From an uncultured Rhodospirillales bacterium (GTDB taxonomy: Bacteria; Pseudomonadota; Alphaproteobacteria; CAAGCB01; CAG-977), in contig CACYSU010000003.1 in the NCBI GenBank assembly GCA_902777205.1, positions 95,492-159,491 of the forward strand: DNA of 64,000 nt, read 5' to 3'. Below are positions 736 to 27,244 of this stretch, piece by piece. The translations under genes and the position numbers were made by a program. Below the pieces are notes generated by a model. That model was given only the letters and a program-made list of their open reading frames with translations. It had not been told where the DNA came from and did not search any database. Position 1 is the stretch's first letter, and every line of letters starts with the position of its first letter.

Positions 736-737
736 TT

Positions 738-2003
738 TTACAGCTCCGGCACATTTGGAACGGCACCGTACACGCCATTGATGTAAGCTTTGTAAAATCC
801 TTCCTTTTTGCGTTCGCTGAAATCGCTTAGCGGATAAAGTTCCGTATAAAACCCGTTCTCTTTTGATGTGAACCAAATTTGATCGCGCGTCAACGTCTCG
901 CCGTCCATTAAATAATGGGCGTGGGACGTAAAAATCAGCTGCGCTTTGGTGTTGTTTTTGTTAAACAGGTTCACCAAATTGTGCACCAAATAAGGGTGTA
1001 GCGATTCATCAAGTTCGTCGATAAATAAAACTTTCCCGTTTTGCAGCACGTCCAAAACGGAATCGGAAATCGCCAGATACATTTTCGTTCCTTCGGATTC
1101 CGTTTGAGCCAAAGGAGTTTCTTTCGTTTCCCCGTCTTCCGTTTTATGATACGTTTTTGCTTCAATAGGGTGGATTTTGTCAAAAAACTCTTTTTTTTCA
1201 GTTTCGTTGATCTCTTCTTTGAAATCAAACTGTTTGAAAAATTCATCCAACGGGGGTGTTTTTACGGATATATCCTCCAAACCGAGATCGGCGTTTCTTG
1301 TAAATTCGATAATGTCTTTACGGCAATTTGCATCATCAGCCATCTTACGCAGAACAGATGAAAAATAACCGGATTTTTCACCGATAATGACAACGTCTTT
1401 TCTGAAAAACTCATAAATATCCCGTACTTCTTCCCTGTCCGTGTTTCTATTGTTGATTAAATCCGACAAAAAAACGCGTTGCGGGATCAATTCCGTGCTC
1501 CATGCTTTTTTAATGCCTTTGGACAAATCAAAAGCGTACGTTCCGTCTTCTTTCCGTTCTCTGGCAAAGATGCACTTTTGCCGTTTTGTGCCTTTTTCGG
1601 AAAAATCGCAAAAAGATGCGCTTTCCTTAACGACAATGCCGTTTAATAAGCAAATTTCATAATCATACAGTTTGCAATTTTTTAAAAATTTTATTTTTAG
1701 GCAAGTCGGTTTTTTATCATAACCTTTCGCAAACAGATAGTAATCGGAAGCCAGTTTGTCGTCGCTTTTTGCCGACGCTCCCGTGCTTAAAATAATTTTA
1801 AGGTATCCAAGGGCTTTCAACACGTTCGTTTTGCCCGAAGCGTTTGCTCCGAAAATGCCGGAAGTTTTGTAGACATACGGCACTTTTTGAAAACCGGTTT
1901 CCATCAAATTGGCTTTTCCGCCGTTTTTGGATGCCGGTTCCATTGAAAACACGACTTCGTCTTTGAACGACCGAAAGTTTGAGATTTTAACTTCAACGAG
2001 CAT
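738..2003 (-). CDS. AAA_21/RloA-like ATPase
   Basis: MLVEVKISNFRSFK start, Walker A GANASGKT, ESEGT signature, Walker B LFIDELDESLHP, QLIFTSH, C-terminal YINGVYGAVP. Confidence 0.85.
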   Translation of the reverse strand: MLVEVKISNFRSFKDEVVFSMEPASKNGGKANLMETGFQKVPYVYKTSGIFGANASGKTNVLKALGYLKIILSTGASAKSDDKLASDYYLFAKGYDKKPTCLKIKFLKNCKLYDYEICLLNGIVVKESASFCDFSEKGTKRQKCIFARERKEDGTYAFDLSKGIKKAWSTELIPQRVFLSDLINNRNTDREEVRDIYEFFRKDVVIIGEKSGYFSSVLRKMADDANCRKDIIEFTRNADLGLEDISVKTPPLDEFFKQFDFKEEINETEKKEFFDKIHPIEAKTYHKTEDGETKETPLAQTESEGTKMYLAISDSVLDVLQNGKVLFIDELDESLHPYLVHNLVNLFNKNNTKAQLIFTSHAHYLMDGETLTRDQIWFTSKENGFYTELYPLSDFSERKKEGFYKAYINGVYGAVPNVPEL

Positions 2004-2220
2004 TTCACACCATTCCTTGAAGATTTTTTGCAAAGAATGTTATTTTATACGCATAAAAATTTAAAAAAGTCAAAAAAATTATGATTATAAACTTTTGCCG
2101 GAGCGAAATTTTAAAACGCAGTTTCGCTCTAAAAAGCCCCAAAAAGCTCCGAAAAGACATTCGGGGCTTTTTGCGTAGGGGGATAGACTTTTCCCGAACA
2201 AAACGCGGGAGGAAGAACGC

Positions 2221-2403
2221 ATGGTCGGGAAAGTCAACAAGATCAAGCAGAGTTATCTGGATTTGGAAAGGGTGGAGGCATTGCAACGGCGGCTGGAAGA
2301 GGCTCTGCCGAACGACAGCGGATTGCGGCTGGACGCGATGATCGCGCTTGCGGTGCTGAAAGACTGCTTTAAATGCGGCTTTGTGGAAAGGGTTGGGGAA
2401 TGA
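2221..2403 (+). CDS. Small hypothetical protein heading the T4SS block
   Basis: 60 aa; GGAGGA RBS; stop overlaps the virB8 ATG (ATGA). Confidence 0.55.
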   Translation: MVGKVNKIKQSYLDLERVEALQRRLEEALPNDSGLRLDAMIALAVLKDCFKCGFVERVGE

Positions 2404-3077
2404 ATGTGGAAGAACCGACGCTTGACCAGCCCGCGACAAACAGCGCGAGTTATCTGCGCCGATTGGAAAAGTCGGTCGCGGTGTTAAGCAAAATCGCGGG
2501 GGCGAGCGTGTTTGCGACCGTTGGCAGTTTTTGCGCGGTGCTGGCTTTGCTGCCGTTGAAACAGACGGAAACCGTGTTCGTGTCGATGACGAACGGCGCG
2601 CAAATCGTGCGTCTGCTGCCCGAACAAATCGACCGTTCAACCTTGGAACAGTATGTCCGCTCCACTTTGACCGAGTATGTGGAAAAGCGGGAAACAATCA
2701 ACTTTGTGGACGACGACGAGCGGTTCAAATGGGTGCAGACGTTCACCCACCCGCAATGGTTCAGACTGTTCGCGGAACACATGAGTTCGGGCAATCCCGA
2801 CAGTCCGCTGGTTTATTACGCCAAAAACGAACTGACGCGGGACGTGTTTGTGCAGAGCTTGGAACAAATCCCCGACGCGGACGACGTGTGGCGGGCGGAG
2901 TATGTCGCGACCGACCGCAAAAGCGGCGTGAAAGTCCGGACGAAAACTTTTGTCGCGACGTTCAAAGCGCGCTTGGCTGGCATAGAGGCGAGCGCCGCGA
3001 AAACCGGAATCAACCCGTTCGGCTTGATCGTGGAAAACTACGCCGTATCGGTCAAAGGCGATCCGAAAGGAGAATAA
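2400..3077 (+). CDS. virB8: VirB8-family T4SS protein
   Basis: Single TM followed by LLPLKQ; EYVEKRE; C-terminal INPFGLIVENY motif; precedes virB9. Confidence 0.85.
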   Translation: MNVEEPTLDQPATNSASYLRRLEKSVAVLSKIAGASVFATVGSFCAVLALLPLKQTETVFVSMTNGAQIVRLLPEQIDRSTLEQYVRSTLTEYVEKRETINFVDDDERFKWVQTFTHPQWFRLFAEHMSSGNPDSPLVYYAKNELTRDVFVQSLEQIPDADDVWRAEYVATDRKSGVKVRTKTFVATFKARLAGIEASAAKTGINPFGLIVENYAVSVKGDPKGE

Positions 3078-3080
3078 ACG

Positions 3081-3956
3081 ATGAAACGGATACTTTTTTT
3101 AATCGCGCTGACAACGGCGGGAGCGGCAAACGCCGCAACGCTTGCGCCCGAACCGCGAGAACTGCTGAAAAGCATTGACGCGGTGCTGGGCGAGGTTCCG
3201 CCGGAACCGGCGACGCAAAAGGCATGGGAAAAGCAAAAGACGGAAACGAAAGCGGGAAACAAAGTGTTCGTCTGGGGACGCGGGCGGACGTTCAAGGTCA
3301 GATTGCGCGAAGGCATGGGAACGGTGTTCAAACTGCCCGACTGGGACGTTATCGACCAGTCGGTTCTGGCGGACGGCGTGAACTTCCGCCAAAAAGAAAT
3401 GAACAACAAGGCGATGCTGTACGTCGAAGCCTTGACGGCTGGCGCGGACACGAGCCTGACGGTCGTCGGACGGTCGGGGAACATCTATAACTTTTATCTG
3501 GCAAGTCAGGGCGTCCGATCGGAAACAATCAGCGATCAGGTCGTGTATGTGGACGCGCCGGTGCCGAGCGTGAAAAGCTTTTTTGCGACGGAAACGGACT
3601 TGAAGCGCAAGGAAAGCGTCGAAAGCTTGGCGACTTTGACGCGAAGCGGCGGAAAAACGTGGCTGAACGAATTGAAGTTCGATCCGACGAAGATCAGACA
3701 CGACGTCGAAATGCGCGGGGATAAAACAATCGCGCCCGTTTTGTCGTTCAGGGACGAACGGTTCACCTATCTGGATTACGGGGCGGATAACGAGGGCAAA
3801 GTCCTGCCCGTCGCGTATCAGGTGGTCGATCGGGTGGATCAGCCCGTCAACGTGCGCAAATCGCCGGACGGGCGGTATCTGGTGGTGGAAACAATCAATC
3901 CGATAACGCTTCGGTACGGAGAGAAAACGGTATGCTTAAAACGGCAATCGTCCTGA
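3081..3956 (+). CDS. virB9: VirB9/TrbG-family T4SS protein
   Basis: Signal peptide; TSLTVVGRSGNIYNFYL; FRDERFTYLDY; ITLRYGEKTVCL. Confidence 0.85.
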   Translation: MKRILFLIALTTAGAANAATLAPEPRELLKSIDAVLGEVPPEPATQKAWEKQKTETKAGNKVFVWGRGRTFKVRLREGMGTVFKLPDWDVIDQSVLADGVNFRQKEMNNKAMLYVEALTAGADTSLTVVGRSGNIYNFYLASQGVRSETISDQVVYVDAPVPSVKSFFATETDLKRKESVESLATLTRSGGKTWLNELKFDPTKIRHDVEMRGDKTIAPVLSFRDERFTYLDYGADNEGKVLPVAYQVVDRVDQPVNVRKSPDGRYLVVETINPITLRYGEKTVCLKRQSS

Positions 3957-4942
3957 CGCTGCTGCTGACGGGGTGCGACAAGAAAGCGGCGGAACAAAAG
4001 CCCGTTCCCATTACGGTGAAATACCCCGCCGATTATTTTACGGTGCTGCCCGATCCGCCGAAACCTCCCGTTGTCGTGGTGGAAAAGGAAGTCGAAAAAC
4101 GCGCCGAGGAAAAAGCGAAACGGATCATCGCCGCCGAACGCGCGAAGGAAAAGCGAGCCGAGCAAAAGAAAGGGGAGCGGCTGGATAAACAAGCTTTGTT
4201 GAAAGCGAGATTCGCGCTGAAACGGGCGGCGAGAACGGCGGCGGGCGGAACGTTTTTAAACGGGGTGCGGGAAGAGGCAAAAACGGAACGGCGGGAAACC
4301 GCGTCGGTTCAGCCGCCGCCGCGGGACAAAGCTTACGCCGCGCCGAACATCACGAGTTCGTATCCGGTGGACAGGTCTTTCATTTTAACGGAAGACAGGA
4401 CGATACCCGCCGTTCTGCTGGACGGGATCAACACGCAAATCGCGGGGACGGTTCGGGCGTATGTGTCCGAAGACGTGTTCGGCGCGTCGGGACGGTTCAA
4501 GCTGTTGGAAAAGGGCGACGTGGTCATCGGCAAGTACCAGCCGACGAAAAAGGTCGGGGACACGCGGGTGGAAATCGCGTTTTACCGCATTATCCGCGCG
4601 GCTGACGGGGCGGAGGTTTATTCGTCTGGTGCGGCGTTCGCGTACGCGGCGGACAAAATGGGGCGCACGGGATTGGTCGGCGATGTGGACAACAGGAACT
4701 GGGAACGCTACGGCTTGGCGTTCAGCACTTCCCTTATCGGCGGCATTGCGGGATTAGGTAAAGCGAAAGTGGACGGCGACGAATACGAGGAGTTTTGGAA
4801 CCGTCTGTCCGACAACACGACCGAGATCACGACCAAGATTTTGGAACAAACAATGAGCATCGCGCCCGTAATCACCATCGCGCAGGGCGAACCGATTTTA
4901 ATCCGCTTGGCGAGCGACATCACATTGAAGCGGGAGCGTTGA
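3932..4942 (+). CDS. virB10: VirB10/TrbI-family T4SS protein with lipobox-like N-terminus
   Basis: IPAVLLDGINTQIAG..RAYVSEDVF, DKMGRTGLVGDVDNR, IAPVITIAQGEPI; N-terminal LLTGC. Confidence 0.9.
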   Translation: MLKTAIVLTLLLTGCDKKAAEQKPVPITVKYPADYFTVLPDPPKPPVVVVEKEVEKRAEEKAKRIIAAERAKEKRAEQKKGERLDKQALLKARFALKRAARTAAGGTFLNGVREEAKTERRETASVQPPPRDKAYAAPNITSSYPVDRSFILTEDRTIPAVLLDGINTQIAGTVRAYVSEDVFGASGRFKLLEKGDVVIGKYQPTKKVGDTRVEIAFYRIIRAADGAEVYSSGAAFAYAADKMGRTGLVGDVDNRNWERYGLAFSTSLIGGIAGLGKAKVDGDEYEEFWNRLSDNTTEITTKILEQTMSIAPVITIAQGEPILIRLASDITLKRER

Positions 4943-5085
4943 TGAAGCGGCTGATCGGGCGGTGTTTTTGGGTAATCGCGATTTACTGTTTTGAACGAAG
5001 CGGCGCGGCGGCGTCGGTTTGCCTTGAACCCGACGAAACCCAAACAATCAGGCAGCTATGGAGACAGAGCAATGACGTATTATAG
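4942..5085 (+). CDS. Short ORF with signal-peptide-like N-terminus, possibly truncated
   Basis: ATG overlaps virB10 stop; MKRLIGRCFWVIAIYCF...; ends 4 nt from the convergent toxin stop. Confidence 0.3.
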   Translation: MKRLIGRCFWVIAIYCFERSGAAASVCLEPDETQTIRQLWRQSNDVL

Positions 5086-5089
5086 ACGG

Positions 5090-5356
5090 CTAAAACAAAT
5101 CATCATGCGAACCCGTTGCGACCAAAACGACTTCGGTGTCCGTTGCGCGGTAGATCAACAGCCAGTCAGGCTTGATATGGCATTCGCGGTAGTTTTGCCA
5201 GTTGCCTTTCAAAGAATGGTCTTTGAACTTGCCGGGAAGAGGTTCGCCGTTCGCAAGTTTTTGCAGTACCAGTTCAAACGTTTTGACGTCAGGGTGCTTT
5301 TTAAGCAGGGCTTTGAACTGGTTTTTGAACGGGTTGTCATAAACGATGCGCTTCAT
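5090..5356 (-). CDS. yafQ: YafQ-family mRNA interferase toxin
   Basis: KDHSLKGNWQNYRECHIKPDWLLIY, ATGSHDDLF. Confidence 0.93.
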   Translation of the reverse strand: MKRIVYDNPFKNQFKALLKKHPDVKTFELVLQKLANGEPLPGKFKDHSLKGNWQNYRECHIKPDWLLIYRATDTEVVLVATGSHDDLF

Positions 5357-5643
5357 TCGCCGTCCTTCATCAAATCCGCCAAAGCGTCATCGACGGAATC
5401 GAAGCGGTTAAAATCCGCGGTATCGCCCGCCAAGTATTGTTCGGCACGGTTCAGGGCGCGGGTTAAGGACGGATTGGGGCGTTCAGCCAAAGACGGGCGG
5501 AACGGCAAACCGCGGCTGACGCGGACTTGGCTGATGAACATGCGGATACCGTCGCTGAGGCTGATGCCGAGTTCGTTCAAAATAGATTCGGCTTCGCGTT
5601 TGGCGGTTTCGTCCACACGGGCTTGAATAACGGTATTGGGCAT
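5353..5643 (-). CDS. dinJ: RelB/DinJ-family antitoxin
   Basis: IQARVDETAKREAESILNELGISLSDGIRMF..GLPF; overlaps the toxin start; GGAGG RBS. Confidence 0.9.
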   Translation of the reverse strand: MPNTVIQARVDETAKREAESILNELGISLSDGIRMFISQVRVSRGLPFRPSLAERPNPSLTRALNRAEQYLAGDTADFNRFDSVDDALADLMKDGE

Positions 5644-5665
5644 GACGCACCTCCTTAATGATAAA

Positions 5666-5694
5666 ATTGTAGTTTGAATGAAGTTGTTTGTCAA
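5666..5694 (-). promoter_or_regulatory. Sigma70-type promoter of the TA operon
   Basis: Minus strand TTGACA (5689-5694), 17 nt spacer, TACAAT (5666-5671). Confidence 0.75.
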
Positions 5695-5726
5695 TACAAA
5701 TACATCTTTTTTGCAAGGAAACGAAT

Positions 5727-7703
5727 ATGAGAAAACGGCAGCAAAAACACAAACGGATAAAATGGATTATCGCTTTGACGGCGGCGGCGATTGCGTTCAG
5801 GTGTCTGGCGCAGGAAGCGGCGCAAACCTTTGACGTACTGATCGCGGCGGAAACGGCGGTTGAGAATGGCGGAACGGTCGCGGCGGGATTGACGCTTTTG
5901 CAGCCGGAAACGGCGCTGAACCTGAACGGCGTGGAACTGACGGGATATTTTGAGGATAAAGCCGCCGTGTTCGACGGAGCGCGGAACACGGAAAACGGCA
6001 AATCCGTCGGATTGCCCGAACCGTACAAAGCGGACACCGGCGGCGCGGCTGTTCTGGAACAAAACAAGCTCTTAACCGTCGAGGGCGACAAGGCGAAACT
6101 GCTGTCCTTGCTGCCTTTGCTGTTCGACGCGGAACAGGCTGTCGGAACCGAACGGGAGCAAACGCGCCCGTCCTTTCCGACCCTGTCCGAACGCGCCGAA
6201 CGGGACGATGCGGAAACCTACGATTCTTCGGCGATTGCCGTGAACGAACAACAGGACGAGGTCGCCTTCACGCTTGCCGAATGTCCCGTGCGCGTAGATT
6301 GGGACAACAATGTCGTCGTGTATCAAAGCGAGGTCGTCAAATCCGTCAACGGACAAGAGGTTGAACGGCAGGGCTGTCAGGATTCCGACTTTCCGATTGA
6401 CATTTTGCGGGCGTATTCCCTTTGCGCCGATGATGTTGTTTTGGCGGACAAGAAAGCCTTTAAAATGTACAAGCCGTACTTTCCGGACAAGGGCGAGCAG
6501 AAGTTTTTAAAAGAATGCACCCGCGACGAAGAGCAAGCCTTTGACATCAAGGAAAGCCTTGACTGCCTGCCGCAAATCGACATGAACGGCAAAAAGGTTT
6601 TGGAACAATCGTATTTGTACTATACGGACGACACCGACCGCGCCGTTACGGTGTCCGAGTGTCAGACAAGGGACACGACAAGAACGTTCGATCTGCGCTT
6701 TACTTACGACACTTGTTCAATCCGCGTTGACGGGGAAAAGAACGTCGCCTATCAGCAGGGCAAGTACGTTTATGACAGGGACGGACAAAGCGTTGACGTG
6801 ACCGCGTGTCAGGACGGCGACAAAACGTATCCGATCGCGGACGAGTTCTGTTATTATCGGGACAACCTTGCCGCCAAGAAAGCCGTCAGATACGAGCGCA
6901 AAAAGGTGAACACCGTGAGCGGACTGCATTACTTGACTGATTGTCAGCCCGTATCGCAAACCGACATTTTGGAAACGTTTGACGGGTGCGAGGGATTGCA
7001 CAAGGACGATTTTACGGCGGGGTTCTCTTACGGGTACAGCCGGTATTACTACGTCAACGACAAAAACGCGCGCGTGTATCTGACCAAGTGCGAACCGAAC
7101 GCTTCGACCTATCAGCATCAGGCGGTTATTGAAGACTGGCAGCCCGATTTTGAAACGATGAAAGCGACGTCGCTTATCGCGTATTACATCGATCTGCCGT
7201 CGGGGCGGATTAAAATAGCGGACGCGGCAATTACCAAAGACAGTATCGCCGTTCCTTTGGCAAAACAGTCCGAACGGGTCGTCAAAACCGACGAATACGC
7301 GGACGCGGGGTGCTGGCGGAACTTCAAACAAGTGCTTTTGGAAACGTATCTGCTGCCGAACGGGCAAACGGTCGAACGAAAAACGCCGATGACGGAGGTC
7401 TTGCCCGTTTATCTGTGCAAGAACGACGATCAGACGGAAACGGGGAGTTATTGCGCCCGCCGCAACTGTTCTGGCATTGCCTGCGCCGTGTTCGGCAGAT
7501 ACAGGATTTACACGGCGACGTATTCCAGAACGCGCGGCGTTCACGCGGGAACGGGGGCGAAGGTCTGTTCGGCGTGGACGCAAACGGCGATCAGTTCGAA
7601 AAAGTCGAAAACGTGCGACAAATCCAAACCGTGCGGGGAAAAATACGTTTTAAGCGGAACGTGCGACGACGGACAGGCGGTGCCCGATGTGCCGTGCCGA
7701 TAA
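5727..7703 (+). CDS. Exported Cys-rich repeat protein (possible mating-pair adhesin)
   Basis: Basic N-terminus plus hydrophobic segment; 6-7 tandem ~45-50 aa units with paired Cys; Cys-rich C-terminus; overlaps virB11. Confidence 0.75.
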   Translation: MRKRQQKHKRIKWIIALTAAAIAFRCLAQEAAQTFDVLIAAETAVENGGTVAAGLTLLQPETALNLNGVELTGYFEDKAAVFDGARNTENGKSVGLPEPYKADTGGAAVLEQNKLLTVEGDKAKLLSLLPLLFDAEQAVGTEREQTRPSFPTLSERAERDDAETYDSSAIAVNEQQDEVAFTLAECPVRVDWDNNVVVYQSEVVKSVNGQEVERQGCQDSDFPIDILRAYSLCADDVVLADKKAFKMYKPYFPDKGEQKFLKECTRDEEQAFDIKESLDCLPQIDMNGKKVLEQSYLYYTDDTDRAVTVSECQTRDTTRTFDLRFTYDTCSIRVDGEKNVAYQQGKYVYDRDGQSVDVTACQDGDKTYPIADEFCYYRDNLAAKKAVRYERKKVNTVSGLHYLTDCQPVSQTDILETFDGCEGLHKDDFTAGFSYGYSRYYYVNDKNARVYLTKCEPNASTYQHQAVIEDWQPDFETMKATSLIAYYIDLPSGRIKIADAAITKDSIAVPLAKQSERVVKTDEYADAGCWRNFKQVLLETYLLPNGQTVERKTPMTEVLPVYLCKNDDQTETGSYCARRNCSGIACAVFGRYRIYTATYSRTRGVHAGTGAKVCSAWTQTAISSKKSKTCDKSKPCGEKYVLSGTCDDGQAVPDVPCR

Positions 7704-8631
7704 CGCCGCTTTGAAAAACGCCCTGCGCCCGTTGGAGCCGTACTTGGAGCTGACGGGAACGAACGAGGTCATTGTCAATCGGGAAAACGAGGTTGTATTG
7801 GAAACGGCTTCCGGTTGGGAGTTCGTTCCGGATAAAAACATCACGAAAGAGATGTTCCTGTCCGTCGGTCGCATTCTTGCCAACCGCGCGGGAACGGACT
7901 TTGACGCGCATCCGTACTTGGGGGCGGAGCTGCCGGACGGGCATCGTCTGCACTTGTGCATGGGGACGACGGTTGAAAGCGGGCTGTGCGTCGCTGTGCG
8001 TTTAAAACGGGCGAGAAACCTGACGATAGAGAACTTTCTGACCGAAAAATCCTTTGCGCCGAAGCCGGAAATGACGTTCGACTTTGCGGACGTGCCGAAC
8101 AGTCTGCGCCGGCTGGTTTTGGAAAAGCGCAACATTCTGATCAGCGGCGCGACGGGTTCGGGCAAGACGAACCTGTTAAACGTGCTGTTGAAACACGTTC
8201 CCGAAACCGACCGCTTTTTAACGATGGAAGACGTGCGCGAGCTGGACACGAGCCATTTGAAAAACACGGTTCACTTTGTCCTGCCTGATAATGGAGCTGA
8301 AACGGAAATCTCTCAAAACGATGTCATAGATGCGATGATGAGGTTACGTCCAGACAGAATTGCATGCGGAGAATTAAGAAGCCGGAACACTTGGACATTA
8401 CTTTCTTTACTGAACAACGGACATGGAGGTTGCATGACAACAATCCATGCCGGTTCACCGCTTCATGCGATCAGCAAGGTCGTGACGAACGCCATGACCG
8501 GCGACAAGTGCGTGGACAAGGACGTTATGGAAAAGATCGTTCGGGATTGTCTGGATTGCGTCATTCAAATCAAAGTGTCCGAGGGTGAACGCTATATCGC
8601 GGATATTGCTTTAAGAGGAAAAGACTACTAG
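7687..8631 (+). CDS. virB11: VirB11 T4SS ATPase
   Basis: GATGSGKT, MEDVRE, MRLRPDRIACGELR, GHGGCMTTIHA. Confidence 0.92.
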   Translation: MCRADNAALKNALRPLEPYLELTGTNEVIVNRENEVVLETASGWEFVPDKNITKEMFLSVGRILANRAGTDFDAHPYLGAELPDGHRLHLCMGTTVESGLCVAVRLKRARNLTIENFLTEKSFAPKPEMTFDFADVPNSLRRLVLEKRNILISGATGSGKTNLLNVLLKHVPETDRFLTMEDVRELDTSHLKNTVHFVLPDNGAETEISQNDVIDAMMRLRPDRIACGELRSRNTWTLLSLLNNGHGGCMTTIHAGSPLHAISKVVTNAMTGDKCVDKDVMEKIVRDCLDCVIQIKVSEGERYIADIALRGKDY

Positions 8632-8661
8632 CCGTAGGGGCAAAGTTTTAAGGAGTGGAAA

Positions 8662-10389
8662 ATGACGCCGTGGAGTGAGGTCAGACAAACGCAACAGCGC
8701 GTTTTGTTGTGCGGGATTGTTTTGTGCGTTCTGTGCGCCGTGTACGGCGGCGCCGTGCGGGACGGCAAAGTGTTCGCCGCTTGTTTGCGTTATGCACGCG
8801 CCGTTGTGATCAATACTGATTTTGCGGGCGTCGATTGGCAAAAGTTCGGTATCGGGGCAAGCGGGTTTTTGTTGCTTGCCGCGTTGACGCTTTGGGCGGC
8901 GTATGCCTGTTTTATCGCAAAGGAATCCGCTTACGGCGAAGCGCGGTTTGCGACCGCGTCCGACCTGAAACGCATGAGGCTGACCGATCGAAAGAACGCT
9001 TCCGGCGTGATTGTGGGCAAGGTCGGTCGGAAACTGCTTTCCCCGACCTGTTTGCGGCACGGCATCGCGCTTGCCCCGACGCGAAGCGGCAAAACGGCGG
9101 GGTTTGTGATGCCGACGGCTTTGTCGTTCAAAGGGTCGCTGATTATCGCCGATCCGAAAGGCGAGCTGGAAACTCTGCTTGCCGAGCCGTTGAAAAAAGC
9201 GGGCAAGACCGTGTACGCGCTTGACTGGTCGGACGAAAAGGCGAAAGACGCTTGGAACCCGCTGTCGTTAAAGGTGTTCCCATCCGTTTTTTCCTCTTTC
9301 GGCAAAGCGGAACGGCAGGCGGAGCGCATTGCCGCGATGCTGGTCGGGCAGAAAGGGCAGTCGGAAGATCACTGGGAGGCAAACGCCAAAAAGCACATCG
9401 CGGCGCTGATTTTGTTTGCCGTGTATCTGGCGGAAATTGCGGAACAACGGCTTGATCCGAACAATCCCGCGACCATTGCCGACTATGAAACCTACCGCGA
9501 ACCGCACTTATCCCGCGTGTTCGGGTTTGTCGCCAAAGACGTTGATGTGCAGACGCTGCTTTCAAAAGGGGCGGAGGCGGTCAACTCCGCCAAGGACAAC
9601 CTGCGCGACCTGCTTCGTTTTGCGGCGGAGGTCGGCGCGCCGCAGCGGATTTTAACAGACCTTGCGTCTTGGGCGAACGCGCCCGACAACGAAGCGGGAT
9701 CGCATACGACGACGTTTTTGTCAAAGCTTCAAATCTGGCGCAGTCGGGCGGTCAAAGGCGCGACAAGGGAATGTTCGTTTGAATGGCAGGATTTGCGCGA
9801 CACGCCGTCCGTCGTGTTTATCAAGTTCCCGCAGCAAGACGCGCAGTCTTTGGGCGTGCTGACGGCTTTGTTCTTTGAAACGTTCTTCGGCTGGGCTTTG
9901 GACGTTCCGAAAAAGCCTGACGAGTGTCCGATCGCGATCCTTGCCGACGAGTTCGCCAGTCTGCCCAAGATCAACCTGATGACAGACTTTCTGTCCAAAG
10001 GCGCGGGCATGGGCGCGGTCGTGTGGCTGATTGTGCAGGACTTCGCGCAGATTAAAGCGACCTACGGCGACAAGGCGTTTGAAACCATCAAAACGAACTG
10101 CTCGTATCTGTTGGTCTATGCGCAGAACAATTACGCCACGCAAAAGGAATTGGCGGAAATGGTCGGCAAGGCGACCCGCAAGCGCAAAAGCGTCAGCAAA
10201 TCGGGCAAAGGCGGCGTGTCCGTGTCGGAAAACGACGAAGGACTGGACTTGATTCCCGTCGCCGACTGGGGCGCGATTCCGTTCGGGCGGCACGTTTTGT
10301 TGTGTCAGAACTTCCTGACCCGCCCCGTTTGGTGCAAAACGCCCCTGTACTTTAAGGAAAAACGATTTACGGAGATGCTCCATGGCTGA
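8662..10389 (+). CDS. virD4: VirD4/TraG type IV coupling protein
   Basis: Two N-terminal TMs, YGEARFA, APTRSGKT, DPKGE, ADEFASL, IVQDFAQI. Confidence 0.92.
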   Translation: MTPWSEVRQTQQRVLLCGIVLCVLCAVYGGAVRDGKVFAACLRYARAVVINTDFAGVDWQKFGIGASGFLLLAALTLWAAYACFIAKESAYGEARFATASDLKRMRLTDRKNASGVIVGKVGRKLLSPTCLRHGIALAPTRSGKTAGFVMPTALSFKGSLIIADPKGELETLLAEPLKKAGKTVYALDWSDEKAKDAWNPLSLKVFPSVFSSFGKAERQAERIAAMLVGQKGQSEDHWEANAKKHIAALILFAVYLAEIAEQRLDPNNPATIADYETYREPHLSRVFGFVAKDVDVQTLLSKGAEAVNSAKDNLRDLLRFAAEVGAPQRILTDLASWANAPDNEAGSHTTTFLSKLQIWRSRAVKGATRECSFEWQDLRDTPSVVFIKFPQQDAQSLGVLTALFFETFFGWALDVPKKPDECPIAILADEFASLPKINLMTDFLSKGAGMGAVVWLIVQDFAQIKATYGDKAFETIKTNCSYLLVYAQNNYATQKELAEMVGKATRKRKSVSKSGKGGVSVSENDEGLDLIPVADWGAIPFGRHVLLCQNFLTRPVWCKTPLYFKEKRFTEMLHG

Positions 10390-11317
10390 ACTTTCCTGCT
10401 ATTCCTGCGCCATATTCGACGCGTTCAACCAAAAAACGCTTTCTTTCTCGCAAGCGTTCTTCGACGCCGTAACGCCCGAGCTGAAAACGCTGCTGTCGTA
10501 TCTGTTCACGCTTTGGATTGTTTACCGTCTGTGCGAAATGCTGCTCGGCAAGCCCGAAAACCCGCAAAACCTGATAAAAGAGTTCATCGACCTTTCGATT
10601 GCGACGGCTCTGTTGCAGAGTTTTGAATACTGGGGCGGCGTTTGCTTTTGGATTTACAACTTCGGCATGGACTTGGGCGTGCGCGTCCTGCGCATCACGT
10701 CGGAGGGGCAAACCGCCGTTCAGGCGTCGTCTTCGGGCGTCGCTGTTCTGCTGACCCATGTGGAAAACAGCTTTGCCCCCGTGCTGGACAAGCTGGGCGT
10801 GATGATGAGCGACATCTCTTGGACAAGCTTGAAGCTGGCAATCGCCGTCGTTCCCGTCGCCGTCATTTACTTTCTGCTGTTGTGGCGGATATTCGCCAGC
10901 CTGTTCAACGTGTTCGTGCAGTTGTTCGCCGTCGCTTTGCTTGCGCCCGTTCTGAGCGCGTTCTACGCCCTGCCGCCCGTCAAATCCGCCATGTTCGCGG
11001 CGCTGCGTCTGCTGCTGATGAACGCGGTGCAGATTGTGCTCACCTGCGGCACGATCGGCATCGTTTTAGCGTATCTGAACAGCCTTTCCCTGTTCCAAGA
11101 CCAAAACGTCGCCGTCGAGGTCGGCACCGTCGGCTATATGCAGATGCTCTTCACCGGCGCGCTCCTCTGGGGTGCCTACGGCATCATCATCGGCACGCCG
11201 TCCCAAATCCTGAACGTCGGGAACGTCATTGACGCAAATCCCGTCCTGACCTTTATCGGGCGTATTCCAAACCGAATCGTTTCTATGACTAAATATGCCG
11301 TTTCAAAAACTAAATAG
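10382..11317 (+). CDS. virB6: VirB6/TrbL-like polytopic membrane protein
   Basis: About five hydrophobic segments; overlaps virD4; T4SS context. Confidence 0.65.
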   Translation: MAELSCYSCAIFDAFNQKTLSFSQAFFDAVTPELKTLLSYLFTLWIVYRLCEMLLGKPENPQNLIKEFIDLSIATALLQSFEYWGGVCFWIYNFGMDLGVRVLRITSEGQTAVQASSSGVAVLLTHVENSFAPVLDKLGVMMSDISWTSLKLAIAVVPVAVIYFLLLWRIFASLFNVFVQLFAVALLAPVLSAFYALPPVKSAMFAALRLLLMNAVQIVLTCGTIGIVLAYLNSLSLFQDQNVAVEVGTVGYMQMLFTGALLWGAYGIIIGTPSQILNVGNVIDANPVLTFIGRIPNRIVSMTKYAVSKTK

Positions 11318-11331
11318 AGGAGCATTGAACA

Positions 11332-11928
11332 ATGACGGTATATGGTTATTTAAGAGTGTCAACGGATAAACAGGACTGCGACAATCAGAAAATCGGTGTG
11401 GAGGCTTTGGCGGAAAAACTCGGACTGCCGATCGAAAGCTGGATTGTTGACAACGGCGTGTCCGGAACGAAAGAACCCGAAAAACGACAGTTGGGCAAAT
11501 TACTGAAAAAAATCAAATCCGGCGATGTCATCATCTGTTCCGAATTATCCCGTTTGGGGCGCAAGTTGTTTATGGTCATTTCGATTCTTGAACACTGTAT
11601 GAAAATCGGCGCAAAAGTGCTGACCGTCAAAGACGGTTACGAATTGGGCGATAACGTTCAAAGCAAGGTTCTTGCTTTTGCATTCGGACTTGTCGCCGAG
11701 TTGGAACGGGATATGATCAGCAAACGCACGAAAGAAGCTTTGTCACGTGTCAAAGCGCAAGGCCGTTCCATCGGACGTCCCAAGGGCAGAAAAAACATCA
11801 AACACATTTGGAGCGGCAAGGAAAAACAAATCAACCGCTTACTAAAGCTTGGCGTCGGAAAAACGAAAATCGCCCGCATGACGGGGATGAGCCTCAACTC
11901 CGTCTATTCTTTTCTGAAGCAACGGTAA
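11332..11928 (+). CDS. Serine recombinase/invertase, Mpi-like
   Basis: YGYLRVSTDKQ (catalytic Ser), SELSRLGR, LGDNVQSKVLAFAFGLVAELERDMISKRTKEAL, GRPKG, C-terminal HTH. Confidence 0.9.
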   Translation: MTVYGYLRVSTDKQDCDNQKIGVEALAEKLGLPIESWIVDNGVSGTKEPEKRQLGKLLKKIKSGDVIICSELSRLGRKLFMVISILEHCMKIGAKVLTVKDGYELGDNVQSKVLAFAFGLVAELERDMISKRTKEALSRVKAQGRSIGRPKGRKNIKHIWSGKEKQINRLLKLGVGKTKIARMTGMSLNSVYSFLKQR

Positions 11929-12138
11929 AACAAAGACTTTTTCTGTTTGATATTGCGGAAAAAACGACCCTTTTTCTTGGTTATACCAATTTGCCTTTTT
12001 TAGCAATAACTATTTTCAAAAATCCTTTAACCGTCTTGTTTTTTTGAAAGCCCCGCTGTCCCGAATGTTTGAAGAAAAAAGGGTGAATATTTGAGTGAAC
12101 TTTTTCACGCAAAAAAGAACGGGAACAGTTACAGGCAA

Positions 12139-12726
12139 ATGATTTACGCGTTTGTGCAGGACGGTCAGAGTATCGAGATTCTCAGGCAACAATGGGAATC
12201 GCTCTCTTCTTATGCGCAAAGTCGGGCTTTAACCATTGATAAATGGCTCGATTCGACTTCTTTCAATCCGGAACTGTTCAAAGCAAAGGACGTCCTTCTT
12301 TTGGAAAAAACATTCCGTTTGGGCAAAGATATTCGCACGATCACTGCGATCATGCAGGAATTGTTGCAAAAAGGCGTCATTATTTGTTCCTGCGAAGACG
12401 ATCTGAAGTTCGGCGAAGATTCCGCTTCGTCAAAAGCGATGGCCCATATGCTCGGTGTCGTAACGGACATTGTGGAGGAGCTGCGCTCCCGTTTAACAAA
12501 AGAGGCCATGACTTCGCGGAAACTGGCGGGACAGAAATTAGGGCGTCCGCGCGGCAGAAAGAACAACAATCATAAATTGGACGTCAAAAAGAATGAAATC
12601 CGGAAATTGCTCCGGTCGGGAAAGACGGAACCAGAAATCTGCCGGTTGCTGAACATACCTCGCTCCACTTTATTCGTATATGTCAAAGACCACCCCGAAT
12701 TAAAACCGGAGGCGCTCAATGCCTAA
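12139..12726 (+). CDS. Serine-recombinase paralog lacking the catalytic motif (possible DNA-binding regulator)
   Basis: MIYAFVQDG replaces YxRVS; retains RLGK, TKEAM..G.KLGRPRG and HTH; overlaps the next gene. Alternative TTG start at 12091. Confidence 0.75.
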   Translation: MIYAFVQDGQSIEILRQQWESLSSYAQSRALTIDKWLDSTSFNPELFKAKDVLLLEKTFRLGKDIRTITAIMQELLQKGVIICSCEDDLKFGEDSASSKAMAHMLGVVTDIVEELRSRLTKEAMTSRKLAGQKLGRPRGRKNNNHKLDVKKNEIRKLLRSGKTEPEICRLLNIPRSTLFVYVKDHPELKPEALNA

Positions 12727-13579
12727 GGTTTCTGTTTTATTGCCGGTGTATAACACGGCGGAAACGCATCTGCGGGAATGTATCGAAGGGATACTCGGTC
12801 AGACGTTTGGCGACTTTGAACTGATCATCGTGAACGACGCTTCGACGGACGGCAATGTGGAACGCGTTGTGAAAAGCTATGACGACCCGCGCATCCGTTA
12901 TTATTCAAACGAAAAGAATCTGGGCATTTCGGAAACGCGCAACCGGCTGATAGAACTGGCGCAAGGGGAATATCTGGCGGTGCACGATCACGACGACGTG
13001 TCTTTGCCGGAACGGTTCGCAAAGCAAGTCGAATATCTGGACGCTCACCCCGAAGTCGGAGTTTTGGGCACGGCTCATATCGAGATTCCGAAAAACAAAA
13101 CGGTTGTTCACCCTCTGACAAGCGAAGAAATCGAAGAAGCTTTGATGTACGACTGTCCGTTGATCCACCCGTCGGTGATGATGCGCAAAAGCGTATTGGT
13201 TGAAACGGGCGTCCGATATGACAAGGATTATTTCCCGACGGAAGACTACAATCTGTATCTGCATCTGATCGGCAAGACGCAGTTTGCCAATCTACCGGAA
13301 GTGTTGTTCAAGTACCGCAAGCACGACGGCAACACGACGAACAGAGAAACGAAGCGGATACGGGAAATCGAGCGTCGTGTATTTGCGTATCTGGAATCGG
13401 AACATCCGGAGCTGTGGCGCAAAGCGCAGGCAAACCACGTCAATGTAACGAAAATCAAGCTGTTCGGCGTTCCGGTGATGAAAGTCAAACATTTCCAGAC
13501 GACGACAAACTATTACCTGTTCGGTTTCATCCCCGTCGCGTCGGTGTATTCCAAAATCACCGCGAAAGGCAGGCTGTAA
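12719..13579 (+). CDS. Glycosyltransferase family 2
   Basis: VSVLLPVYN, NDASTD, DHDDVS, HPSVMMR, EDY. Confidence 0.92.
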   Translation: MPKVSVLLPVYNTAETHLRECIEGILGQTFGDFELIIVNDASTDGNVERVVKSYDDPRIRYYSNEKNLGISETRNRLIELAQGEYLAVHDHDDVSLPERFAKQVEYLDAHPEVGVLGTAHIEIPKNKTVVHPLTSEEIEEALMYDCPLIHPSVMMRKSVLVETGVRYDKDYFPTEDYNLYLHLIGKTQFANLPEVLFKYRKHDGNTTNRETKRIREIERRVFAYLESEHPELWRKAQANHVNVTKIKLFGVPVMKVKHFQTTTNYYLFGFIPVASVYSKITAKGRL

Positions 13580-20313: not shown

Positions 20314-21048
20314 ATGGTTTCATTTTCTTCGGATCAACGTTTCATTGTTACGGGAGCTTCTTCCGGAATCGGACGGGGTGTCGCATTGTTATTGAATGAA
20401 TTAGGCGCTACGGTAATCGGAATCGCTCGCAATCAAAAACGGTTGGAAGCGATGAAGGCCAAAGCAAAATATCCCGAACACGTCTTTTTGGAACAAAAAG
20501 ATTTAGCTGAAGATATGGAAGGCTTGCCTGCGTATGTCAAAGCGTTGAAAGACAAATACGGCAAGTTTTCCGGTATGGCTTATTGTGCCGGAAGCGTTCC
20601 TATTCAGCCTTTGGCGGCAACAGATTATAATGCCTTGCTTGAAACGTTGAATATTAATTATATCGCTCCCGTTCTTGCGGCGAAGGGGGTGGCGGATAAA
20701 AGGAACAATATTGGCGCAGGGACGTCTATGGTTTTTATTTCTTCCGCGTCTTCTTTGATTTCGGATAAAGGACATTTGACGTATGCGGGAAGCAAAGCCG
20801 CTTTGTGCGCTTCCGTTCGATCTATGGCAAAAGAATACGCGAAAAACAGAATTAGAATGAACTGCATTTTGCCGACCAATATTAAAACGGAAAAATCGCC
20901 GCAGGAATACATTGATTCACAAATAGCCTCTTATCCAATGGGCTTTGGAGAACCGATCGATGTCGCGAATTTGGCCGCGTTTTTACTGTCTTCGGAAGCA
21001 TCGTGGATTACGGGACAGAATTATATTTTGGACTGTGCGAGTTTTTAG
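20314..21048 (+). CDS. SDR oxidoreductase (FabG-like)
   Basis: TGASSGIG, YAGSKAAL, WITGQ. Confidence 0.88.
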   Translation: MVSFSSDQRFIVTGASSGIGRGVALLLNELGATVIGIARNQKRLEAMKAKAKYPEHVFLEQKDLAEDMEGLPAYVKALKDKYGKFSGMAYCAGSVPIQPLAATDYNALLETLNINYIAPVLAAKGVADKRNNIGAGTSMVFISSASSLISDKGHLTYAGSKAALCASVRSMAKEYAKNRIRMNCILPTNIKTEKSPQEYIDSQIASYPMGFGEPIDVANLAAFLLSSEASWITGQNYILDCASF

Positions 21049-21058
21049 GGGACGGCAA

Positions 21059-22189
21059 ATGGCAACAGCATCATTTAAAAATACGCGGATGATAGGTATT
21101 AAAACGGTTGTTCCGGAACATTGCGTCAATATAGACGACGAACTGCGGTATTTCGAAAATAACCCGAAAAAGCTTTCCCGAGCTAAAAAAATGATGGGAT
21201 ACGGCCGCAGATATATTGCTGACGACAACACAACCGTTACGGATATGGCGGTCGATGCAGCCGAAATACTAATGGCTGAAATGAAAATCAATCGCGATGA
21301 AATCGATTTACTGATTTTCGTCAATCAAAATCCCGATTATCCGCGCCCGAGTGATGTATGTTTGGCGCACGGACGTTTAAATTTAAAGAAAGCGTGTACT
21401 TCTCTTCAAATCAATTTGGGGTGTTCCGGATATGTCCATGCGTTAATGACGGCGGCCGGATTGATGTCTTCGGGGGCATTTAAGCTCTGTCTGCTTTTAT
21501 GCGGAGACAATCCGGCACACGATATTTCCGTTGATAACAGGAAAATCGCTCCCGTATTCGGGGATGCCGTTTCGGCAACGCTTTTAAAATATGATTGCAA
21601 TGCGCCGGAATCGTTTTTTGTAACGGGAACGAACGGAAAAAAATGGGATAAAATCATTCATCCGTTCGGCGGTCAAGCTCTCCCGTTCAAAAAGGAGGAT
21701 TTCGATTTTCGGATTCATGATGAAGCAGGCAATGTCTGGACGGCGGAACAGGGACTGATGAAAGGCGAAGATGTCTTTAATTTCACGATGGATGTTGCTC
21801 CCGCATTATTGAACGACACGATGAAAGCAGCAAATTGGACAGCAGAAGATGTGGATTTGTTTGCAATTCATCAAGCGAATAAACAAATTGTAGAAGCGAT
21901 TGTTTTTAAGGCGGAAATCCCTGCACAAAAAGCTCCTGTCGAAACGTTTTCACGGTATGCGAACAATTCGGTCAATTCCGTTGCAACCGTATTGTGCGAT
22001 CAAAAAAGAGATTTGAAAAAAGTCGTTCTTTGTTCTTTCGGCATCGGACTTTCGTGGGGCGGAGCCGCACTTGATTTATCTGGAATGTATAACGGCGGGA
22101 TTTCAACTTACATTTCCCCGAAAGCGAAACCGACGCGTGAACAACAAATTCAACACTGGATTAACTACTTTAAAGGAGACGAAAAATGA
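21059..22189 (+). CDS. Ketoacyl-ACP synthase III-like (FabH family)
   Basis: LGCSGY (Cys), HQAN (His), YANNS (Asn), FGIGLSWG. Confidence 0.88.
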   Translation: MATASFKNTRMIGIKTVVPEHCVNIDDELRYFENNPKKLSRAKKMMGYGRRYIADDNTTVTDMAVDAAEILMAEMKINRDEIDLLIFVNQNPDYPRPSDVCLAHGRLNLKKACTSLQINLGCSGYVHALMTAAGLMSSGAFKLCLLLCGDNPAHDISVDNRKIAPVFGDAVSATLLKYDCNAPESFFVTGTNGKKWDKIIHPFGGQALPFKKEDFDFRIHDEAGNVWTAEQGLMKGEDVFNFTMDVAPALLNDTMKAANWTAEDVDLFAIHQANKQIVEAIVFKAEIPAQKAPVETFSRYANNSVNSVATVLCDQKRDLKKVVLCSFGIGLSWGGAALDLSGMYNGGISTYISPKAKPTREQQIQHWINYFKGDEK

Positions 22190-22404
22190 CGAACGAAGAA
22201 TTTTTAACGGAAATGCAGGACGTTTTGCAGACGGAAGAAGAATTGTCTATGGACACCGTTCTGGATGATTTGGATGAATGGGATTCTCTGTCCGTTATGG
22301 CGACGATGGCGTTTTTGGAAAAGTCTTTCGGCATCAAGACGACAATGAAAGATTATCACGAAATGAAAACAATCGGCGATATCGCTAAAAAAGCGGGACT
22401 GTAA
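22186..22404 (+). CDS. Acyl carrier protein
   Basis: 72 aa, acidic, WDSL phosphopantetheine Ser motif. Confidence 0.88.
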   Translation: MTNEEFLTEMQDVLQTEEELSMDTVLDDLDEWDSLSVMATMAFLEKSFGIKTTMKDYHEMKTIGDIAKKAGL

Positions 22405-22406
22405 AG

Positions 22407-22817
22407 ATGATCAAAGGATTGCACCATATCGGCATAGCTTCCCGTAATATTGCGAAGGATACCGCGTTTTTTGAAACGTTTGGGTATCATCCGCAAAGTC
22501 CCGAACGTGAGGATGTTCAGGCGGATATCCGTGTGCAATTTCTGTCTGCCGGAAATCAGCCGGATTTGGAGCTTGTCGCCAATTTAAGCAAAGAGGGACC
22601 GGTGTCCCCTCATTTGCAGGCGCGGCGGAAAATTTTTCATTTTGCATACGAAACAGATGATATCGAAGCGGATGCGCAAAAAATGATTGACGAGCAAAAC
22701 GCTTCTTTTCTGGTTCCCATAACGCAGGTTGAGGACGGTTCGTCAAACATCAAAGCGTGGTGCTATTTGATGTTTCGCAACATGATGATTGTCGAACTGG
22801 TAGAGCTGAAAGGATAA
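22407..22817 (+). CDS. VOC/glyoxalase family protein (methylmalonyl-CoA epimerase-like)
   Basis: LHHIGIA, LELV, FHFAYETDDI, IVELVE. Confidence 0.8.
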   Translation: MIKGLHHIGIASRNIAKDTAFFETFGYHPQSPEREDVQADIRVQFLSAGNQPDLELVANLSKEGPVSPHLQARRKIFHFAYETDDIEADAQKMIDEQNASFLVPITQVEDGSSNIKAWCYLMFRNMMIVELVELKG

Positions 22818-22820
22818 AAT

Positions 22821-23561
22821 ATGTCTGAATTTAAAAACGAACAGATATTTGTCGTAACAGGAGCTTCTTCAGGTATCGGTCAAGCTGTTGCGTGGAAATT
22901 GATCAAAGAAGGAGCGTCTGTTATCGGCGTAGACCGGAATATGGACGGCTTGCAGGCTTCTAAACAACAGGCTGAATGTCCGGACAGATTTTTTTGCGAA
23001 CAAAAAAATCTGGCGGAAGACGTTGCCTCTTTGCCTGATTTTATATCGGCATTAAAGGATAAATACGGCAAACTGCAAGGTGTTGCCTGTTGCGCGGGAA
23101 TAACGGAAATGAGACCGTTGCGCGCATTGGATATCGACCAGATGAAGCGTCTGTTCGACATCAATTATTATGCGCCGATATTTTTAGCAAAAGGCTTCGT
23201 TGACAAACGCGTCAACAACGGCAGCGGCTCCTCTTTCGTTTCGATTGCCTCCATTGCCAGCAAAAGTCCGGCAAAAGCGGTCATTACCTATTCGGGATCA
23301 AAAGCGGCATTGGCAATATCCATGGTTGCTATCGCCAAAGAATATGCTTCCAAGGGGATACGTTTTAATACTGTTTCCCCTTCTGACATTGATACGCCGA
23401 TGACACAGAAGATTCCTGAAATTATGGACAAGGTTCGTGATTTTTATCCGATGGGATTCGGAAAACCGGAAGATGTCGCCAATGTTGTTTCATTTTTGCT
23501 GTCCGATCGGGCAAAATGGATTACGGGACAAAACTACGTTATCGACTGCGCCAGCAGATAA
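22821..23561 (+). CDS. SDR oxidoreductase, paralog of 20314-21048
   Basis: TGASSGIG, YSGSKAAL, YPMGFG, WITGQNY. Confidence 0.88.
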   Translation: MSEFKNEQIFVVTGASSGIGQAVAWKLIKEGASVIGVDRNMDGLQASKQQAECPDRFFCEQKNLAEDVASLPDFISALKDKYGKLQGVACCAGITEMRPLRALDIDQMKRLFDINYYAPIFLAKGFVDKRVNNGSGSSFVSIASIASKSPAKAVITYSGSKAALAISMVAIAKEYASKGIRFNTVSPSDIDTPMTQKIPEIMDKVRDFYPMGFGKPEDVANVVSFLLSDRAKWITGQNYVIDCASR

Positions 23562-23573
23562 TCGGGGGAGACT

Positions 23574-26256: not shown

Positions 26257-26257
26257 A

Positions 26258-27232: not shown

Positions 27233-27244
27233 CAGGAGAAAGAA

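Follow-up and report, generated by a model that had tools for sequence, protein, structure and literature searches.

Invertible promoters before capsule loci are a central theme in gut bacteria, known mainly from Bacteroides and now also from Akkermansia. The closest described system is that of Bacteroides fragilis, in which the invertase Mpi flips 13 regions, among them seven polysaccharide (PS) promoters, and in which co-expression is reported to be limited by UpxY and UpxZ (PMC4747536, PMC10403206). Here we describe a locus from an uncultured Rhodospirillales bacterium of the Alphaproteobacteria (assembly GCA_902777205.1), contained in a stretch of 64,000 nucleotides that was analysed as a whole and is called the window below (contig CACYSU010000003.1, positions 95,492 to 159,491). 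An intact Mpi-family invertase gene (open reading frame 1, ORF1) is followed there by a short invertible segment, by a catalytically dead paralog of the invertase (ORF2) and by a glycan cluster. The locus is best read as an Mpi-type inverton, that is, a phase-variation switch, whose ON-specific first product would be a non-catalytic, recombinase-derived DNA-binding regulator with a target that we infer. Its features, in window coordinates, are:

11332 to 11928, plus strand: ORF1, intact Mpi-family small serine DNA invertase of 198 aa (PF00239, NF009949, Y6/R8/S10)
11955 to 11980, extent approximate, unstranded: left crossover site, with outer half GCGGAAAAAACG, centre AC(C) and inner arm CCTTTTTCTT (from the joint in a contig of run X2 and shared flanks)
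11967 to 12084, unstranded: invertible segment of 118 bp inside the 210-bp gap between ORF1 and ORF2, with 12/13-nt inverted repeats whose arms are ACCCTTTTTCTT (11967 to 11978) and AAGAAAAAAGGGT (12072 to 12084)
11980 to 12006, minus strand: putative sigma70-like promoter inside the segment, leftward in the window (presumptive OFF orientation), from conservation among 12 switches; -35 TTGCTA at 12001 to 12006, -10 TATAAC at 11980 to 11985, spacer of 15 nt, alternative -10 TAACCA at 17 nt
12072 to 12097, extent approximate, unstranded: right crossover site, with the inner arm, then GGT followed by GAATATTTGAG (from locus comparison, the X2 joint and shared flanks)
12139 to 12726, plus strand: ORF2, catalytically dead Mpi-family paralog ('pseudo-recombinase') of 195 aa, first gene behind the switch (Pfam, BLASTP, NCBIfam, dN/dS, AlphaFold2, Foldseek)
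12719 to 35105, plus strand: glycan/acyl-modification cluster (Pfam)

The likeness to the Bacteroides fragilis system extends to the NCBIfam invertase family, to short promoter segments flanked by inverted repeats before multi-gene glycan loci, to the presence of several loci per genome and to regulators as the first genes of the operons. The two systems differ in that, in the closer clade of the loci considered here, an invertase gene lies beside each switch, whereas Bacteroides fragilis has one master gene; in that the first gene is a dead invertase paralog here and the NusG-like UpxY, or UpxZ, there; and in that the present host is alphaproteobacterial and ORF1 falls under the equivalog cut-off of the Mpi model. 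Pfam finds only Resolvase and helix-turn-helix (HTH) domains in ORF2, and neither a UpxY (NusG/KOW-like) nor a UpxZ family, the likeness being one of position and of possible role. The site motif ARACGTWCGT, associated with Mpi, was not found in the papers searched, and we make no claim of site likeness to Bacteroides.

Partial parallels exist in other recombination systems. In Salmonella Hin/hix/fljBA, a small serine invertase is encoded in cis, the invertible DNA carries a promoter, and an operon expressed in the ON state encodes a trans-acting regulator, FljA, together with a surface antigen; the present locus resembles this system in the invertase, the promoter and the operon with a regulator; hin, however, lies inside its invertible segment, whereas ORF1 lies outside, and FljA is unrelated to recombinases. 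The fim switch of E. coli also has paralogous recombinases beside an invertible promoter, the orientation-dependent expression of one biasing the direction of switching, but FimB and FimE are both catalytically active tyrosine recombinases, while the second paralog of our locus appears inert. Tn3/gamma-delta resolvase (5cy1, 1gdt) has the same fold and also acts as a repressor of its own promoter, a precedent for a serine recombinase that serves non-catalytically on DNA, whether in an architectural role or in repression; there a single active protein fills both roles, whereas a separate, permanently non-catalytic paralog would be at work here.

The Akkermansia cps1 inverton is similar in being a phase-variable capsule locus of a non-Bacteroides gut bacterium that occurs in both orientations in vivo, and differs in its inverted-repeat motif, CGGATT..AATCCG (PMC13343947). 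The words 'recombinase' and 'invertase' are absent from the main text of that paper, which therefore describes no recombinase paralog in the cps1 operon, and the main text of the DeepInverton paper mentions Alphaproteobacteria only for GC content. Our full-text literature search found no description of a catalytically dead serine recombinase paralog at an invertible promoter, in agreement with a first-pass annotation of this DNA, made from the sequence alone, which had known of no such system. Invertible glycan promoters are already known; the new component would be the conserved dead invertase paralog as an ON-specific first gene.

Inversion of the intergenic segment

We aligned the 210-bp gap between ORF1 and ORF2 with the same gap of related public loci (L005 and following). 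The central stretch of the L005 gap was unalignable to those of L006, L008 and the window, although the flanks align, and a scripted comparison identified it as the reverse complement of the L006 stretch, one base off in an A-run, with the flanks collinear. Logan contigs of four public runs were also placed on 11400 to 12700. Among these, the X2 contig (451 nt) matches the plus strand over 11607 to 11966 and then crosses to the opposite strand, on which it runs from 12084 back to 11994, 9 nt at the joint being compatible with both sides; it carries none of its differences in the inverted part and 36 in the first part, and so comes from a related strain. The X1 contigs end at 11928 to 11968 and the public contig L007 starts exactly at the right boundary, GGTGAATATT, as would be expected because assemblers break at segments present in two orientations. 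The two orientations occur in public assemblies that are nearly identical to one another. The segment inverts in nature.

Adjacency suggests that ORF1 is the enzyme that flips the segment, and recombination between the inverted repeats would place the crossover inside ACC/GGT. The outer flanks are shared widely, with AAACG and then (A/T)CC on the left and GG(A/T) and then GAAT on the right each common to 10 of 12 switch types. Weak inverted pairs from a scan of 10800 to 13200, including one that flanks ORF2 (11926/12725, 12 of 15), were dropped, the real arms having been found by locus comparison. A pattern search of the whole genome returned only the two known switches with real inverted repeats, its other 24 matches being without them. 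One X1 contig, of 92 nt, tracks the window to 11968, the midpoint of the left crossover site, and then carries 51 nt without a match in either orientation of the segment, in the genome or in any of the fetched loci; this tail may represent another partner site or the switch of another strain.

The sole strongly conserved block in 12 diverged, like-oriented switches abuts one arm and consists of TTG, about 17 nt and T-TA, with A/T-rich sequence upstream. Over these switches the TT of the -35 is invariant and the G present in 11 of 12, the -10 reads T.TA, and the window promoter likewise has an A/T-rich tract upstream. On the strength of this conservation we take the block as a putative sigma70-type promoter, from which the ON and OFF directions follow; the window operon would then be OFF and the second locus of the same genome, C14, would be ON. 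On this reading, 18 loci (window, L006, L008-L014, L016, L020, L023, L024, L026, L031, L034, L038, L042) have the promoter directed away from the dead gene and six (L005, L021, L022, L030, L033, L035) have it directed toward that gene, to which C14/L043, with a weaker -35, and L046 are added, counts that are not frequencies because they derive from consensus assemblies with some duplicates. No orientation was called at 15 further loci, several of which are short of upstream DNA and two of which (L015, L036) hold only remnants. Both orientations were found for three switch types, namely the window type (toward the dead gene in L005, L021 and L022; away from it in the window, L006, L008, L009 and L020), L013 versus L030, and L033/L035 versus L034. 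The X15 contigs cover portions of both genes and none of the switch; with DNA carry-over possible and the sequences being those of relatives only, they are no proof of transcription.

An active invertase and its dead paralog

ORF1 had been annotated as an intact, Mpi-like serine recombinase, and both parts of that description hold. PF00239 (Resolvase) matches profile positions 1-144 of 145 with an E of 1.2e-33, and the catalytic residues of small serine recombinases (Y6, R8, S10, R68 and R71 in Tn3 numbering) are all present, the first three within MTVYGYLRVS, alongside an SRLGR motif; the catalytic positions are invariant across an alignment of 17 relatives. NF009949, 'master DNA invertase Mpi family serine-type recombinase', is by far the top NCBIfam model, and the Mpi-like segment GDNVQSKVLAFAFGL is present. 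ORF1 matches profile positions 2-195 of 203 of this model with 247.5 bits, just under its curated equivalog cut-off of 272 bits (a whole-protein score), which is likewise not reached by the C14 invertase copy (258.8 bits) and is exceeded by the L018 relative (281.1 bits). The genome holds two invertase genes, each beside its own switch, rather than one master gene for many distant loci.

The reading frame first assigned to ORF2, 12091-12726, keeps its end and loses its start, since the TTG at 12091 is unconserved and homologs begin with MIYAFVQD, which corresponds to the ATG at 12139. In BLASTP the two proteins are 25% identical over 195 columns (E 1e-22), so that their paralogy is far beyond chance. 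PF00239 covers profile positions 61-144 only in ORF2 (E 8.7e-9; 36.1 bits against a gathering cut-off of 23.3), and the HTH_7 match is weak. Six residues are described as crucial for catalysis by Tn3 resolvase, namely Y6, R8, S10, D36, R68 and R71 (PMC2794168). Four of them are replaced in ORF2, the alignment with ORF1 giving Y6 to F, R8 to Q, S10 to G and R77 (Tn3 R71) to K; ORF2 retains R74 (Tn3 R68) and lacks 13 residues that follow the D36-equivalent region. The catalytic end thus reads IYAFVQDG, without the nucleophilic Ser10, R8 or Y6, which bears out the loss of the catalytic Arg and Ser (YAFVQDG) noted in the first pass.

The remainder of the recombinase is in place. ORF2 is full-length and retains the long E-helix, a GRPRGRKN arm and the HTH, and its stop codon (12724-12726) lies beyond the ATG of the first glycosyltransferase, of family 2 (GT2), at 12719, giving an overlap of 8 nt; alignment, model and overlap all agree here with what had been annotated. 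The AlphaFold2 model (mean predicted local distance difference test score, pLDDT, 84.9) has an alpha/beta domain, a helix at 94-128, a flexible arm and four short helices, and Foldseek places it closest to Tn3 resolvase on site III (5cy1, E 1e-8), gamma-delta resolvase, Sin and Gin. A predicted heterodimer of ORF1 residues 1-145 and residues 1-132 of the dead copy reached a median score of 0.31, against a mark of 0.32, which speaks neither for nor against such a dimer. Judged by its sequence, ORF2 is a serine recombinase by descent and not a working member of the family, predicted to be unable to cleave DNA, yet with all the parts by which a recombinase dimerises and sits on DNA.

Selection and genomic pairing

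A word-indexed search found 65 relatives of the dead copy at 43-96% identity. R8 and S10 are absent in all 25 of these database homologs that were aligned, and the Ser nucleophile is absent in all dead-copy homologs down to about 41% identity. An exhaustive search of representatives gave only six clusters with E <= 1e-30; a few others fall between 1e-25 and 1e-29, and generic recombinases begin after them. The ratio of nonsynonymous to synonymous substitution (dN/dS) of the dead copy has a median of 0.079 and a range of 0.04-0.19 (35 pairs, nine close orthologs), compared with a median of 0.057 over 20 pairs for ORF1-type invertases, and the frame is intact in 38 public loci. These ratios indicate that the dead copy is under purifying selection and is not decaying. 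Neutral decay together with a lack of conserved pairing had been named beforehand as an outcome that would speak against a functional pair, and it is contradicted by the low dN/dS and by the recurrence of the pair.

That recurrence is a property of one clade, the pairing of active and dead genes seen in the first pass being found in close relatives and not in distant ones. Among the evaluable loci with a dead copy that shares at least 51% identity with the window's, 15 of 15 have an invertase gene directly upstream, at about 210 bp (window, L005, L006, L008, L010, L011, L012, L020-L024, L026, L027, L037; four more are short of upstream DNA). These invertases are 68-98% identical to ORF1 over the matched stretch, three of the loci holding only a partial gene. 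The genes further upstream vary, from a type IV secretion system (T4SS; window, L005, L006) to an amidohydrolase, a phage lysozyme, a DUF3800 protein and an RNase J-like protein (C14); the pair therefore travels with the switch and not with the conjugation genes. The distant clade (40-46% identity) has the switch, with outer flanks AAACG, ACC ... GGT, GAAT (e.g. L013, L016, L033, L038), while an adjacent invertase was found in none of its 11 loci with at least 2.3 kb of upstream DNA. Full-length Mpi-family genes, two to five per genome, are present elsewhere in the distant-clade genomes, which makes action of an invertase in trans plausible for this clade only.

The link to glycans is more general. 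The next gene on the same strand is one of glycan synthesis (GT2, GT92, GT61, DegT, nucleotidyl-transferase or phosphomannomutase, PMM) in 28 of the 30 public loci with downstream DNA (12/13 genome loci and 16/17 metagenome loci), as it is in the window and C14; the exceptions, L018 and L039, each have a 279-aa protein of no family. The first pass had tied the gene pair to surface-glycan control, and the switch does front a glycan cluster; the invertible promoter segment that makes the connection had escaped it. Within the order to which the window belongs, a high-scoring type-A copy is present in 12 of 28 species genomes and other pseudo types in four more, and the Ser is absent in all five intermediate-scoring genes that were read (one of them in G019, which also has a type-A copy). 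The genomes of L014-L019 (G001-G005) each carry two to five full-length Mpi-family invertase genes and only one or two dead copies, and further invertons that lack a dead paralog probably exist in this lineage. Two distant relatives, P0071 and P0078, have the loop deletion of the dead copy while keeping R8 and S10 (GFVRVSKN, AYVRNSGK), and may be intermediates between active and dead forms.

Types of dead copy and variant loci

The dead copies fall into pseudo types A, B, C and D, two of which sometimes stand in tandem. Type B (YGYIRAE) directly follows the first dead gene in L008, L020, L021, L024 and L026, whereas type D (YAGVHTY) heads other loci behind a switch of its own. The second locus of the window's genome, C14, consists of an invertase, a 120-bp switch and a paralog with YGYVRLC (Ser to Cys), after which the contig runs out in the N-terminus of a GT2. 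The DNA-binding ends of the types are mosaic. In the L027 protein the N-terminal part is 60% identical to type A, and the C-terminal part shares 81% identity with type B; between types B and D, identity is 36% in the N-terminal part and 62% in the C-terminal part.

Several loci depart from the common layout in other ways. In L017 (1-6585), L018 (191-6576) and L039, an Mpi-family invertase on the opposite strand is followed by a promoter-like TTGCTA-N17-TATAAA and a GAATATT motif, then by an RgpF-like gene, by a multi-glycosyltransferase protein of 1358-1593 aa and, 15 nt behind this giant gene, by the dead copy; between the divergent invertase and the operon of L017 and L018, we saw the promoter-like sequence and GAATATT but no clear inverted repeat. 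L029 (2322-2442) and L013 (24-144) share the same segment and right arm and differ in the left arm and outer flank, the left side reading acgtatcc and then ACCGTTTTCCTT in L029, and atttaacg and then ACCGTTTGATTT in L013; the left site of L029 may be degenerate or exchanged. Upstream of the dead copies of L015 (5830-6000) and L036 (2330-2500), only remnants of a switch were found, comprising a promoter-like TTGTAT-N17-TATACA on the minus strand and two boundaries like GGT, GAAT about 50 nt apart, and this switch may be locked or decayed. L016 (CAVCSV010000002.1) is a typical locus of the alphaproteobacterial family in a metagenome bin titled Limosilactobacillus gorillae, and its contig is probably mis-binned.

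The glycan cluster and its surroundings

The cluster behind ORF2 encodes, on the same strand, a GT2, a GT92-like protein, an epimerase, an MsbA-type ABC exporter, DegT, a further GT2, FdtA, GNAT, short-chain dehydrogenases/reductases (SDRs), beta-ketoacyl-acyl carrier protein synthase III (KAS III), an acyl carrier protein (ACP)-like protein, a transketolase-like pair, an AMP-ligase, LuxE/LuxC and an acyltransferase, with small ORFs filling the gap at 22189-22821. Its second half (20314-32811) has genes for lipid-type chemistry, where we found three SDRs, two KAS III, a VOC-like ORF, a GNAT, a 72-aa ACP-like ORF (22186-22404), the transketolase-like pair in split form, the AMP-ligase, the LuxE and LuxC homologs and an Acyl_transf_3 protein. 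This content suggests an acylated glycan or glycolipid as the product, rather than a plain capsule.

Conjugation genes flank the cluster. Upstream, 145-11317 includes VirB8, VirB9/CagX, VirB10/TrbI, VirB11, VirD4 and TrbL-like genes, the T4SS genes ending 15 nt before ORF1, and a MobA/VirD2-type relaxase is encoded downstream on the minus strand (36520-37341). An AbiEii-like AAA/RloB pair occupies 145-2033, and within the cluster the GC content drops to 0.35-0.50, from about 0.55. The locus may be carried by, or have been inserted into, an integrative conjugative element.

Discussion

We propose that ORF1 flips the adjacent 118-bp segment with its putative promoter. With the promoter facing right, transcription would run through the dead paralog, which may be translationally coupled to the first glycosyltransferase, and then through the glycan cluster; with the promoter facing left, as in the window, the operon would be OFF. 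Because the conserved block is read as an invertible promoter, the dead paralog would be made only in the ON state, and it probably serves as a regulator. As an inert dimer on recombinase-type sites, it could report the state of the switch back onto invertons, locking its own switch, while copies with swapped DNA-binding domains could target the switch or promoter at other glycan loci. Action on such sites and at other loci is supported by the several pseudo types, the tandem copies and the mosaic DNA-binding ends. That dead copies occupy recombinase-type sites at their own switch, and copies with swapped ends those at other loci, so that switching or expression depends on the state of the switch, is a plausible reading that we put forward tentatively on the basis of these sequence comparisons. 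Its extension to a modular layer of invertons, in which pseudo-enzymes, each made only when its own promoter is ON, use exchangeable ends (types A-D and mosaics) to occupy crossover sites at rival glycan loci as well as at their own, is more doubtful.

Several observations weigh against this proposal. A strict sigma70 consensus scan returned no promoter in either orientation, in the window and in L005, so that the ON and OFF labels could be swapped. The orientation counts include duplicates, L008 and L020 having the same two coding sequences. In several genomes of the order, just one gene matches at the dead-copy score, which weakens a purely cross-locus role. In L017, L018 and L039 the dead copy is not beside a switch and lies about 5 kb inside the operon, behind the giant glycosyltransferase. 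The arm and HTH of the dead copy are, moreover, only 31% identical to the same part of the adjacent invertase, and the dead copy may therefore not recognise the half-sites of the invertase.

The position deep inside some operons and the strong divergence of the HTH fit an inverton of the kind already described in which the dead paralog is an ordinary transcription factor, unrelated to recombination sites, that activates its own long operon or represses unrelated or competing surface genes in the manner of FljA and UpxZ. With its alpha/beta domain, long helix and HTH, the dead paralog also resembles regulators of the NarL/FixJ type (weak Foldseek matches, prob 0.6), and some members have GerE/HTH_38 matches in Pfam. 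However, the retained GRPxGxxN minor-groove arm is typical of site binding by recombinases, the dead copy is nearly always the first gene behind the switch, and no independent operator motif was identified; we consider this explanation unlikely, if still a serious one. Another possibility is that the inversion complex requires the dead paralog as an accessory or architectural subunit, like Fis at the Hin enhancer or resolvase dimers at the non-catalytic accessory sites of res. The top structural match is to Tn3 resolvase at accessory site III (5cy1, E 1e-8), and the right outer half-site differs between the two dead-copy clades (GAATATTT versus GAATTCCTTTG) where the left one is the same. If the invertible promoter is the sole promoter, however, the protein would be absent in the OFF state and could not be needed for switching from OFF to ON, and invertases (2-5) outnumber dead copies (1-2) in genomes; an obligatory subunit is distinctly improbable.

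The remaining explanation takes ORF2 for a functionless, decaying duplicate and ORF1 for the resolvase of the neighbouring conjugative element. The T4SS genes (VirB8/9/10/11, VirD4, TrbL-like) immediately before ORF1 and the relaxase at 36520-37341 would suit such a resolvase, but a dN/dS of 0.04-0.19 and a frame that is intact in 38 public loci do not suit a decaying gene. The pair lies elsewhere beside quite different upstream genes (amidohydrolase, phage lysozyme, DUF3800, RNase J-like), and the inverted repeats and the inversion are found between the two genes rather than at the ends of an element. Selection and context data already contradict this account, which we regard as very improbable indeed.

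Whichever role the dead paralog has, the locus extends Mpi-type switching to uncultured Alphaproteobacteria of the gut and rumen. If, as we tentatively propose, the dead paralog makes recombination or rival loci respond to the state of the switch, it would provide a simple, testable route to memory or mutual exclusion in switches that work by DNA inversion, and would suit synthetic recombinase circuits as a natural component. Should the modular layer prove true, phase-variable surface glycans in these bacteria would have both memory, through locking, and mutual exclusion, a logic like that of UpxZ built from dead invertases.

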